Shown here one piece after another: positions 24,934-39,856 of a stretch of DNA of 64,000 nt. Source of the DNA: Candidatus Aenigmatarchaeota archaeon (lineage in GTDB: Archaea; Aenigmatarchaeota; Aenigmatarchaeia; Aenigmatarchaeales; JACQIB01); NCBI GenBank assembly GCA_016198755.1, contig JACQIB010000003.1:1-64000 (forward strand), in the 5' to 3' direction. Positions within the stretch are counted from its first letter, which is position 1. Every line of letters starts with the position of its first letter. The position numbers were made by a program, and so were the translations under genes. Under the pieces are notes generated by a model. It was not told where the DNA came from. It did no database searches and saw only the letters and a program-made list of their open reading frames with translations.

Positions 24934-25058
24934 GCCCCCCTAGTTTTTGGGGAAAGCTCAGCATGGATGGAGCGCCTGACTTCTAACGAGCGTTAGAAGA
25001 TCTGACAACAGATGAAGAAATCAGGAGGTCGCGGGTTCAAATCCCGTGGGGGGCACCA
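24934..25058 (+). tRNA. tRNA-Arg(TCT) with two introns: 8/9 (24942-24954, 13 nt) and 37/38 (24986-25019, 34 nt)
   Basis: Acceptor GCCCCCC/GGGGGGC, D stem GCTC/GAGC with A20, anticodon stem CCTGA/TCAGG, TTCAAAT, CCA; helices CCCC/GGGG and CTTC/GAAG each followed by AA|A. Confidence 0.92.
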
Positions 25059-25095: not shown

Positions 25096-25860
25096 ATGAC
25101 AACCGTTGTTTCTATAGTAAGCGGAAAGGGTGGTGTGGGTAAAACCACCACTACTTTAAACCTTGCTGCAGCTCTTGCAGAGAGGGATCATTATGTTACT
25201 GTTGTTGACGGAAATCTAACAACCCCAAACATAAGCCTTCACTTGGGAATTCCGTTGTTTCCAACAACTTTACATGATGTTCTGCAGGGAAAAATAGACA
25301 TAACAAAAGCAGTCTATATACACGAGTCTGGAGTAAGGGTTGTTCCAGCCTCCCTTTCAGTTGAAAACCTAAAGGGAATAAAGGCTTCAGATTTGCAGAG
25401 AGCACTTGATCCTTTGGTGGAGAGAAAGGGCTGGATTCTGCTGGATGGTGCAGCTGGTTTGGGAAAGGAAGCTAGGACAGTTATGAGGGTTTCTGATACT
25501 TCCATAATTGTAACAAATCCTGAAATTCCTGCTGTTACAGATGCCCTAAAAGCAATAAAAGTTGCAAATCAGATTGGAACTCCTGTTGCAGGTGTTATAA
25601 TAAACAGATGGACAGGAAAAAAACATCAAATGACTCTAAATAATATTTTTGAGATGCTTGAAAAGCCAATTCTGGGTGTTGTACCTGAGGACCAGAAAAT
25701 ACAAGAGTGTATTTCCCAGAAAAAGATGTTCTTCCATACACATCCGCAGAGTAGGACAGCTTACAGGTACAGGTATATTGTTTCAAATATTTTAGGCCAG
25801 CCATATCCAAGGCCAACAGGCTTAACAGGAGCCTTCAAGAGAACTTTCCTAAACTACTAG
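25096..25860 (+). CDS. minD: MinD/ParA family ATPase
   Basis: SGKGGVGKTT, LDGAAGLG, VTNPEIPAVTD. Confidence 0.92.
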   Translation: MTTVVSIVSGKGGVGKTTTTLNLAAALAERDHYVTVVDGNLTTPNISLHLGIPLFPTTLHDVLQGKIDITKAVYIHESGVRVVPASLSVENLKGIKASDLQRALDPLVERKGWILLDGAAGLGKEARTVMRVSDTSIIVTNPEIPAVTDALKAIKVANQIGTPVAGVIINRWTGKKHQMTLNNIFEMLEKPILGVVPEDQKIQECISQKKMFFHTHPQSRTAYRYRYIVSNILGQPYPRPTGLTGAFKRTFLNY

Positions 25861-39727: not shown

Positions 39728-39856
39728 TGGTGGGGCAGGCGTGATTTGAACACGCGACATTCCGCACTGCACACAATAGGTATGCAGTTCCACGGTCTTC
39801 AGCCGTTTAAGCCTCTTTAATTAAGAGTGTGCTCTCCCGAGCTGAGCTACTGCCCC
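39728..39856 (-). tRNA. tRNA-Phe(GAA) with two introns: 27/28 (39807-39828, 22 nt) and 44/45 (39760-39789, 30 nt)
   Basis: Acceptor GGGGCAG/CTGCCCC, anticodon stem CACGG/CCGTG after splicing, loop CTGAAGA, CCA; helices GAGC/GCTT and CCGT/GCGG with AA|N bulges. Confidence 0.92.

Follow-up and report, generated by a model that had tools for sequence, protein, structure and literature searches.

What could a 34-nucleotide intron of a transfer RNA (tRNA) gene be for, when it holds a complement of the very anticodon loop that it interrupts, followed at a short distance by two motifs resembling boxes D' and C' of methylation guides? This question is raised by the tRNA-Arg(UCU) gene of a Candidatus Aenigmatarchaeota archaeon, found in a window of 64,000 nucleotides on contig JACQIB010000003.1; the window is contig 1 of the source genome, and positions given without a contig are those of the window. 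We propose that the intron probably works as a natural monopartite box C/D-type guide, i.e. one with a single K-turn (kink-turn), that acts on its own precursor before splicing and has the wobble nucleotide U34 as its predicted target. Throughout, G000 denotes the source genome (890,842 bases or 0.89 Mb, six contigs, 89% complete), other G numbers the genomes of relatives, L numbers fetched loci and C1-C6 contigs.

The gene is not readily recognized by standard searches. ARAGORN in its default mode reported zero tRNAs in the whole window; with introns allowed, it returned a gene spanning 24934-25058 but miscalled it as Phe, and the anticodon UCU was set by hand. The Rfam model RF00005 matches 24955-25047 (model positions 9-63) with 29.3 bits against a gathering score of 29, a near-threshold value because a second insertion of 13 nucleotides breaks the D-arm region. 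As read from the sequence, the acceptor stem is GCCCCCC/GGGGGGC, A73 and the CCA end are both encoded, and the anticodon stem is formed by CCUGA (24975-24979) with UCAGG (25021-25025). The elements of the gene and of its intron are collected in Table 1. The intron borders may shift by one nucleotide, owing to flanking A's.

A first-pass annotation of this DNA had described the intron as antisense, AT, CTGA, a loop and ATGAAGA, and every statement that it made about the sequence is correct. Thus, the antisense element is the exact reverse complement of C32-A37 and the next three nucleotides, and A24997, the fifth base upstream of CUGA (D'+5), stands opposite the wobble U34 (24982), a pair to which ViennaRNA gives a probability of 0.995. 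The proposed K-loop pairing of UCUGA with GAAGA is likewise possible: A25016, G25017 and A25018 can pair with U25003, C25002 and U25001, respectively, giving U-A, C-G and U-A next to tandem G.A pairs. Both caveats attached to the description are real as well, namely a mismatch at D'+2 (A25000 opposite A31) and a competing AUCUG/CAGAU hairpin, which belongs to the predicted minimum-free-energy fold.

Taken alone, one copy of such a motif carries no significance, since CTGA-N3-10-GATGA occurs about 70 times on the two strands of the genome, mostly in coding DNA. It is conservation that lifts the motif above chance. A BLAST search with the whole gene in 60 relatives recovered orthologous tRNA-Arg(UCU) genes whose alignment, with 71-86% identity, extends across the intron; these orthologs (L006-L018, L021, L023, L029 and L030) were not selected for the motif. 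Their common layout is CUUCUA(A), a loop of 5-8 nucleotides, (U/A)UAGAAG, two nucleotides, NNGA, a loop or stem, GAUGA or UGUGA, GAAGAA and the anticodon stem. Accordingly, conservation of the motifs and of the register, which the first-pass annotation had left to be checked, holds: a D'-type NNGA, an AUGA-type C' and the D'+5 position are kept in the orthologous introns. A pattern scan over one genome per species (185,579 species) returned 76 stretches. Twenty-nine of these lie inside tRNA-Arg(UCU) genes, all 29 archaeal, in records mostly titled Candidatus Aenigmatarchaeota, a DPANN lineage; the remaining 47 are chance matches in unrelated, mostly bacterial DNA, where a rough estimate made before the scan had been a few dozen by chance. 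A looser pattern (CTTCTA..TAGAAG-NN-NNGA) gave 40 matches in 34 of 61 relatives versus 10 matches for a reversed control. It was found in 30 of 41 relatives of the same order (31/42 with G000) versus 3 of 19 in the other orders of the class.

The orthologs also reveal which parts of the motif matter. The segment between the two GA dinucleotides is unconserved and is either a short loop (a K-loop, as here) or a Watson-Crick stem-loop. Where a stem is present, the C-stems differ from copy to copy (GC/GC, GG/CC, GCCC/GGGC, GGAC/GUCC and UGCC/GGCA), and exactly three unpaired bases (GAU, UGU or UAU) precede the second GA. In their sequences, the stem variants are textbook K-turns, with a C-stem, a 3-nucleotide bulge, tandem G.A pairs and a non-canonical stem. 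The sequence features of a K-turn or K-loop, the ligand of L7Ae, are present in all variants, the three-dimensional fold being predicted. The register originally chosen, with AUGAAGA as C', fits these variants best. The other register, in which GAUGA serves as a canonical C' with a U.U pair, is possible in the K-loop forms and was rejected as a misfit to the stem variants, which have one GA after the 3-nucleotide bulge. Read by eye, 27 of the 29 pattern-derived orthologs combine either CUGA with GA-AG (12) or UUGA with GA-AA (15), with two exceptions, such that a C or U at position 1 of D' goes with a matching G or A two bases past GA; this probably reflects one or two evolutionary events only, essentially two clades. 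MAFFT left the K-turns of some orthologs out of register, so that the K-turn stem was given no formal covariation count.

For the helix between loop and antisense, the alignment is informative. Among 19 distinct tRNA-Arg(UCU) anticodon arms, this helix is paired in 94% of cells, compared with 26-50% for slid controls; with the intron pairs counted in, the overall figure is 96.1%. In the 19-ortholog alignment, intron base 1 and its antisense partner are AU in 11 cases, UA in 6 and CG in 1, and the next intron-antisense pair is GC in 6, CG in 4, UG in 2, AU in 1 and UA in 1. Since the helix covaries with intron bases that are absent from mature tRNA, the cis duplex appears to be selected in the precursor. 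The duplex comprises 7 base pairs with the exon and 1-3 with the intron, close to the roughly 10 base pairs of the guide duplex in an ordinary C/D particle.

The first-pass annotation had also noted that box C' overlaps GAAG of the bulge-helix-bulge (BHB) splicing helix. The overlap is there in this gene, fused in G000 and its close relatives of family f3, yet it fails as a general trait: in many orthologs GAAGAAA is a separate module, 2-9 nucleotides downstream of the K-turn. By comparison of these orthologs, the overlap is a local compaction of two elements that are elsewhere separate.

The idea of a lone single-motif guide in one tRNA had to be corrected, for the intron is a member of a lineage-wide family. 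Four further tRNAs of G000, for Met, Trp, Leu(CAA) and Glu(UUC), share the design, each with its own antisense of 6-7 nucleotides, a 2-nucleotide spacer and a K-turn or K-loop (Table 1). Tallying matches to the tRNA model gave 24 in G000, 43 in G026 and 42 in G010, and all were read in the latter two genomes, which belong to other families. In G026, the tRNAs with the design are Gln(UUG), Leu(UAA), Glu(UUC), Met, Trp and Arg(UCU). Those of G010 are Met, Leu(CAA), Gln(UUG), Ser(CGA) and Arg(UCU), and its Glu(UUC) has a degenerate copy. The antisense follows the anticodon, and nucleotide 34 sits at D'+5 in every design-bearing tRNA listed for the three genomes; the +5 register for C34 of tRNA-Trp is thus found in G000 and G026. 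The K-turn is missing from seven other intron-bearing genes of G000 (Lys-CUU, Gly-UCC, Arg-UCG, Val-CAC, initiator Met, Asn and the gene at 39731-39856 of the window), and the design is absent from the G026 introns of three Ser, two Ile, Arg(CCU), Arg(GCG), two Thr, Gly(CCC), Tyr, Ala and Leu(CAG). Because loose genome-wide scans for antisense plus K-turn returned mostly coding DNA, only matches inside tRNA genes were used.

The spacing was quantified with a parser on the 19 introns of the three genomes that have an antisense and a closing anticodon stem. A K-turn or K-loop lies at the 2-nucleotide spacer in 12 of the 19, or 12 of the 14 detected K-turns. One (Lys-UUU of G010) lies at 4 nucleotides, one (Ser-CGA) was scored at 1 nucleotide through a frame slip and is at 2 by eye, and five have no K-turn, including Leu-UAA of G026, which was missed through a one-base offset of its C-stem. 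Composition-preserving shuffles gave 0.048 matches per intron at the 2-nucleotide spacer and 0.30 when spacers of 0-6 nucleotides were all allowed, that is, about one in six at the spacer in question. Separately, in an unfiltered scan, the Lys(UUU) introns of L026 and L031 apparently have the usual 2-nucleotide spacer.

A guide of this type requires proteins, and the genes for the C/D ribonucleoprotein, another check named at the outset, are all encoded in G000: profile searches matched fibrillarin (PF01269, 238.8 bits), Nop5 (PF01798, 147.9 bits) and L7Ae (PF01248, 99.9 bits). The L7Ae gene lies at C5:154956-155228, and the genes for fibrillarin (C6:89438-90004) and Nop5 (in the region C6:88723-89358) are adjacent on contig 6. 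Each of the 61 relatives gave a fibrillarin match, 60 of these matches exceeding the curated cut-off, and the distribution of this protein therefore cannot discriminate between readings. As to classical double-motif C/D small RNAs (sRNAs), two regular-expression scans of the whole of G000 gave nothing convincing, and the Rfam model snoPyro_CD gave sub-threshold matches only, in G000 and in all control genomes alike, and is uninformative. A scan of about 67 kilobases of DNA free of open reading frames gave six matches, one of them plausible, and no absence of ordinary C/D sRNAs is claimed. This plausible candidate lies at about 1848-1895 of L004, equivalent to C5:123103-123150 (+) of G000, and reads AUGAUGA, 13 nucleotides, CUGA, a GAGGAGA-like box, 11 nucleotides and CUGA. 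It occupies a gap without open reading frames, adjoins a second L7Ae-family gene and is also a sub-threshold snoPyro_CD site.

How would guiding be reconciled with splicing? For 24975-25025, ViennaRNA gives -16.2 kcal/mol to the guide hairpin combined with AUCUG/CAGAU, and -8.9 kcal/mol, i.e. 7.3 above the minimum, to a splicing-type (BHB-like) fold in which C32-C35 pair with the 3' GAAG. In the latter, the 4-base-pair helix and the 3' AAA bulge fit, and the 5' site would fall in a 16-nucleotide loop. GAAG at 25014-25017 is the sole partner that offers C32-C35 a 4-base-pair helix followed by a 3-nucleotide AAA bulge with the 3' splice site. The two folds are mutually exclusive, as the first-pass annotation had recognized, in that C32-C35 pair with the antisense or with the 3' GAAG, never with both.

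We envisage the following sequence of events. In the primary transcript, the antisense would form a 9-base-pair duplex with C32-A37 and the first three intron bases, and CUGA and AUGAAGA, two bases further on, would fold into a K-loop bound by L7Ae. Nop5-fibrillarin would dock on the L7Ae complex, two precursors possibly sharing one Nop5 dimer, and fibrillarin would methylate the 2'-OH of the D'+5-paired nucleotide, the wobble U34. The duplex would then open, and C32-C35 would pair with the 3' GAAG to give a BHB-like fold that the splicing endonuclease could cut. Methylation would precede splicing, because the duplex must open before C32-C35 can join the splicing fold. The proposal starts from what can be read directly (how the intron is laid out and conserved, how the cis duplex covaries, that other tRNAs repeat the design with nucleotide 34 in register, and that the three protein genes are encoded), and from there to a working guide is the step that we rate as probable. 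The intron has the sequence hallmarks of a box C/D guide, namely a K-turn or K-loop with two GA dinucleotides and a short non-canonical stem, an antisense upstream of D' with a +5 target, and genes for L7Ae, Nop5 and fibrillarin in the genome. The bipartite architecture of C/D plus C'/D' is absent, in that neither the 34-nucleotide intron nor its longer counterparts in Trp, Met and Leu contain a second UGAUGA/CUGA pair. In Pyrococcus, C/D sRNAs, stand-alone or intronic, target the wobble base of four tRNAs, namely Leu-CAA, Leu-UAA, Met and Trp (PMC7994747), and every one of these is among the tRNAs that bear the design; Um34 and s2Um34 are reported in archaeal tRNAs for Gln(UUG) and for Leu(UAG) (PMC7668247). 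A guide interpretation of the intron is thus supported by every computational check available, with the function itself predicted.

Several observations weigh against a cis guide. In the prediction for naked RNA, the guide hairpin is about 7 kcal/mol more stable than the splicing fold, and splicing thus calls for some remodelling that the model leaves unexplained. The target would sit in a cis hairpin with a closing loop of 2-8 nucleotides, at a three-way junction with the anticodon stem, a geometry that may restrict the access of Nop5-fibrillarin to U34, and this junction could just as well be what demands the fixed 2-nucleotide spacer. In an older in-vitro study, single-motif complexes were poorly active and non-specific, and C/D guides in nature are said to have two sets of motifs in every case (PMC1635284). 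The family is, moreover, not uniform. Some orthologs have no intron (tRNA-Arg(UCU) of L027 and Trp of G010), and that of L028 has a different one. In Lys(UUU) of G010 (C3:76975-77166) and Lys(CUU) of L025, the K-turn lies two bases further off and C32 comes to D'+5; Arg(CCU) of L019 is out of register; GCAA in Glu of G010 and UGUA in Lys(UUU) of G026 replace NNGA; and in the Thr(UGU) intron of L034 the antisense is directed at positions 38-43. Antisense to the anticodon is also found in introns that have no K-turn, e.g. Lys(CUU) of G000, and by itself is not specific to the design. In G010, whose tRNA-Trp is intron-less, a stand-alone guide for C34 of Trp was not found (10 TTGGAG-NN-NNGA matches, none with a C-box or K-turn context), which is a weak test. 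Finally, the orthologs are related, and counts across them overstate independence.

The main rival, which we regard as rather unlikely, takes the K-turn to be an architectural L7Ae site with no methylation. It would kink the intron and organise the three-way junction of anticodon stem, loop-antisense hairpin and K-turn stem, and could thereby direct the endonuclease to relaxed splice sites, set the timing of splicing or shield the precursor. The D'+5 register would in that case be a side effect of junction geometry. Protein-assisted remodelling is needed anyway, with the 5' splice site inside a very stable hairpin and the canonical BHB fold disfavoured; L7Ae is described as binding many non-guide RNAs (PMC5539422); and G000 is rich in non-canonical introns, as its low number of tRNA-model matches and several T-loop insertions indicate. 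The frequent anticodon antisense without a K-turn in introns of this lineage and the copies with degenerate GA positions or shifted register point the same way. However, such a role leaves unexplained why most K-turns are found in tRNAs for purine-ending split codon boxes (Ser-CGA being an exception), the four Pyrococcus wobble targets included, and are missing from introns of Ser, Ile, Thr, Gly, Tyr, Ala, Arg(UCG), Arg(GCG) and Val. Nor does it account for the order of boxes D' and C' or the exact N+5 spacing, and many other introns of these genomes are apparently spliced without a K-turn.

Were the guide instead to work in trans, the freed 34-nucleotide intron, linear or circular, would join L7Ae, Nop5 and fibrillarin to methylate spliced tRNA-Arg(UCU) or other precursors, like the tRNA-Trp intron of Haloferax. 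The tRNA-Trp intron particle is reported to act in trans (PMC4090602, PMC7994747), excised archaeal introns and C/D sRNAs are described as often circular and stable (PMC7994747, PMC3491384), of the nine bases in the antisense, seven would still match the anticodon loop after splicing, and splicing would call for no unfolding of the guide. We nevertheless find this improbable, because the antisense covaries with the first 1-3 intron bases, which are gone from the mature tRNA. In 6 of 19 orthologs, a U as intron base 1 pairs with an antisense A, which would oppose A38 once the tRNA is spliced, and the mature tRNA leaves a duplex of only 6-7 base pairs. Very improbable, in our judgement, is that the motif has no dedicated function and is a GA-rich by-product, inherited by descent, of the need for a 3' GAAG-AAA and a purine-rich antisense. 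The bare motif is indeed common by chance, about 30% of the trials with shuffled introns of the same composition yield something like a K-turn at one spacer or another, and the orthologs are not independent. Yet the motif persists in orthologs whose K-turn is set apart from GAAGAAA, as many as six different tRNAs of one genome combine it with antisense and loop sequences that are unrelated, changes in the C-stem are compensated, and the concentration of detected K-turns at the 2-nucleotide spacer is far from what the shuffles give over seven spacers. An H/ACA-type guide was considered as well and rejected, U34 lying inside a continuous duplex with no ACA box 3' of a pocket.

If the intron is a cis guide, what might methylation of U34 be good for? 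A search of the 89%-complete G000 found neither Elp3 (TIGR01211) nor the PP-loop ATPase (PF01171); of the controls, four of four archaeal genomes pass the Elp3 cut-off and 14 of 14 match PF01171. Elp3 is present in 30 of the 61 genomes. In 42 genomes of the order, the Arg(UCU) pattern is present in 9 and absent from 9 of the Elp3-positive genomes, and present in 21 and absent from 3 of the Elp3-negative ones. This inverse relationship (Fisher p = 0.014, uncorrected for phylogeny or genome incompleteness) is a lead only. Both G032 and G023, whose tRNA-Arg(UCU) is without the 37/38 intron, are Elp3-positive. These data hint that a guide-made 2'-O-methylated nucleotide 34 (Nm34) may stand in for a base modification of U34. 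A wider hypothesis, which we hold tentatively and regard as possible but on the doubtful side, is that the Aenigmatarchaeota have retained a set of introns (Arg-UCU, Glu-UUC, Gln-UUG, Leu-UAA, Leu-CAA, Lys, Met, Trp and sometimes Ser-CGA) as cis single-K-turn guides. Each would be a two-state device that places methylation before splicing, with Nm34 restricting wobble in purine-ending split boxes and replacing xm5(s2)U34 where Elp3 and 2-thiolation have been lost.

Table 1. Features of the tRNA-Arg(UCU) gene in the window and of the other G000 tRNA genes that share the intron design
Feature	Position	Strand	Basis or remark
tRNA-Arg(UCU) gene with two insertions; encoded CCA at 25056-25058	24934-25058	+	Rfam RF00005, ARAGORN with introns, sequence, ortholog alignment
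Second insertion, 13 nucleotides, D-arm region, outside the guide	within 24942-24956 (borders ambiguous)	+	Absent from every fetched ortholog
C32-A37, anticodon-loop target strand; U34 = 24982	24980-24985	+	Sequence; invariant in 18-19 of 19 aligned orthologs
34-nucleotide intron, canonical 37/38 position	24986-25019	+	Sequence; orthologous gene of L027 intron-less
Antisense (guide) element CGTTAGAAG = CGUUAGAAG	24991-24999	+	Exact reverse complement of 24980-24988, i.e. C32-A37 and intron bases 1-3
2-nucleotide spacer AT, setting the D'+5 register	25000-25001	+	Parser counts over three genomes
Box D'-like CUGA	25002-25005	+	NNGA kept in orthologs (CUGA, UUGA, CGGA, ACGA); GA in proposed sheared pairs
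K-loop, CAACA plus GAU	25006-25013	+	Relatives have a Watson-Crick stem-loop and 3-nucleotide bulge instead
Box C'-like AUGAAGA	25012-25018	+	GA 25014-25015 opposite GA of CUGA
GAAG and AAA, 3' strand of BHB central helix and bulge; overlaps C'	25014-25020	+	Sequence; GAAGAAA conserved at intron 3' ends of orthologs
Elongator tRNA-Met	C5:96089-96195		UAUGAG-UU-UCGA-GCGAAAGC-UGU-GA
tRNA-Trp	C5:99342 onward		UUGGAG-AG-UCGA-GCAAAAGC-GAU-GA
tRNA-Leu(CAA)	C6:66988-67109		K-turn design, G000
tRNA-Glu(UUC)	C6 near 69666-69790		K-turn design, G000

Outside the guide, the gene has a further peculiarity in its 13-nucleotide D-arm insertion. In its predicted local fold, a 5-base-pair helix made with leader bases is followed by a 3-nucleotide AAA bulge, a 4-base-pair CCCC/GGGG helix and an 8-nucleotide loop, and in this form it looks like a non-canonical intron of the bulge-helix-loop type. 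Directly downstream of the gene lies an open reading frame of 254 residues (25096-25860, +), with an N-terminal GKGGVGKT-type motif that we take to be a deviant Walker A motif as in MinD/ParA-type ATPases.

Insertions are common among the tRNA genes of G000: many hold at least one, many of the introns are non-canonical and several are T-loop insertions. In tRNAs at C3:183267-183324, C5:94398-94494, C2:209366-209452 and C6:74208-74268, a near-identical insertion starts right after TTCAAA or TTCGAA and holds a GGGGGAAGTTTCCCCC hairpin; these look like a family of repeated T-loop introns. In the window, a second tRNA gene (39731-39856, -) has an insertion of about 50 nucleotides; it scores 39.7 bits with Rfam in the genome search, is missed by ARAGORN in default mode and is called Ile(UAU) with introns allowed. 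The introns of tRNA-Trp (C5:99342-99600) and tRNA-Arg(UCG) (C3:21854-21980) share a 5' module of about 30 nucleotides, CAGAACCUU.ACGGUUCCG.CACCUCCCCAA, and of this pair only the Trp intron has a K-turn; the common module suggests that intron modules may move between tRNA genes. In tRNA-Glu(UUC) of G000 (C6 near 69720-69790, -), G026 (C5:11839-11953) and G010 (C2:172469-172587), the loop is CCUUCG, where C33 replaces the near-universal U33, and the tRNA-Glu loop of L032 is the usual CUUUCG.

Having set out the case for a cis single-K-turn guide, we would note what it would mean. Methylation guide RNAs are described with two sets of C and D boxes (PMC9670817, PMC1635284), and those with a single motif have until now been in-vitro constructs. 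A conserved family of one-K-turn guides in nature would show that cells make use of the minimal architecture, and its members would be the first monopartite C/D guides of natural origin. Self-guiding through an intron, so far a matter of tRNA-Trp, would come to cover the majority of tRNAs for purine-ending split boxes. The persistence of tRNA introns is a long-standing question; here there would be a functional reason for keeping them in a reduced genome, the intron being the specificity subunit of a modification enzyme and the alternative pairing placing modification before splicing. The tentative inverse link with Elp3 suggests, in addition, how a reduced DPANN genome may rewire its wobble chemistry. 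The system is small, a 125-nucleotide transcript and three proteins, and the D'+5 prediction is sharp: shifting the K-turn by one base should move the methyl group.

The closest known system is the euryarchaeal tRNA-Trp intron, a C/D guide in Haloferax volcanii and in Pyrococcus (sR50), which is likewise a 37/38 intron with antisense to its own anticodon loop and the wobble nucleotide at N+5 (PMC4090602, PMC7994747). It is described as depending on L7Ae, Nop5 and fibrillarin (PMC4090602, PMC7994747), genes for all of which are found in G000, and the tRNA-Trp of G000 and G026 also carries the minimal single-K-turn design. The differences lie in size and host. The euryarchaeal Trp intron, with a median of about 65 nucleotides, is given as a full C/D sRNA for two sites, C34 and U39 (PMC4090602), whereas the present one has 34 nucleotides, one K-turn or K-loop and one guide. 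A second guide for U39 is absent from the 34-nucleotide intron, antisense to positions 38-43 being found only in the Thr(UGU) intron of L034. The host here is tRNA-Arg(UCU) along with several other tRNAs of the lineage, as opposed to Trp alone in Euryarchaeota, where a 2014 review called the Trp intron guide 'a unique example' (PMC4090602).

A second precedent, compared here by its description rather than its sequence, comes from another DPANN archaeon and has a host other than Trp. In the elongator tRNA-Met of Nanoarchaeum equitans, an intron with box D, a variant box C and a GC hairpin has been proposed to be a methylation guide (PMC3491384). With 66 nucleotides, it is about twice as long and is presented as a single case (PMC3491384); the tRNA-Met of G000, G026 and G010, the same host tRNA, carries the single-K-turn design. 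The architecture itself has its counterpart in the engineered monopartite guides MMG4 (one K-turn) and MMG5 (one K-loop), which have the guide 5' of a single D-loop-C and the target at position 5 and are reported to be specific and efficient in vitro with L7Ae (PMC9670817). These are synthetic and act in trans on short substrates through a free guide of 12 nucleotides (PMC9670817), whereas the present intron is natural, embedded in the precursor and pre-paired in cis.

Position 34 is also the target of the stand-alone C/D sRNAs of Pyrococcus for tRNA-Leu(CAA), Leu(UAA) and Met, a set of tRNAs overlapping with ours; these, however, are separate genes, bipartite and acting in trans, and tRNA-Arg(UCU), Glu, Gln and Ser(CGA) are not among the targets described there (PMC7994747). 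In eukaryotes, Trm4 (C34 of pre-tRNA-Leu(CAA)) and Pus1 (tRNA-Ile) likewise need the intron to modify the anticodon loop before splicing, but as protein-only enzymes that recognise the intron-containing fold, with neither K-turn nor guide ribonucleoprotein in their description (PMC4090602). Literature searches, supplements excluded, brought up neither K-turns nor guides described for introns of tRNA-Arg, Glu, Gln or Leu, nor natural single-motif guides, nor work on Aenigmatarchaeota tRNA introns. In the literature searched, two cases are known, namely the euryarchaeal tRNA-Trp intron guide and the C/D-like RNA of Nanoarchaeum equitans tRNA-Met, and the family described here would be a variation on the first of these.

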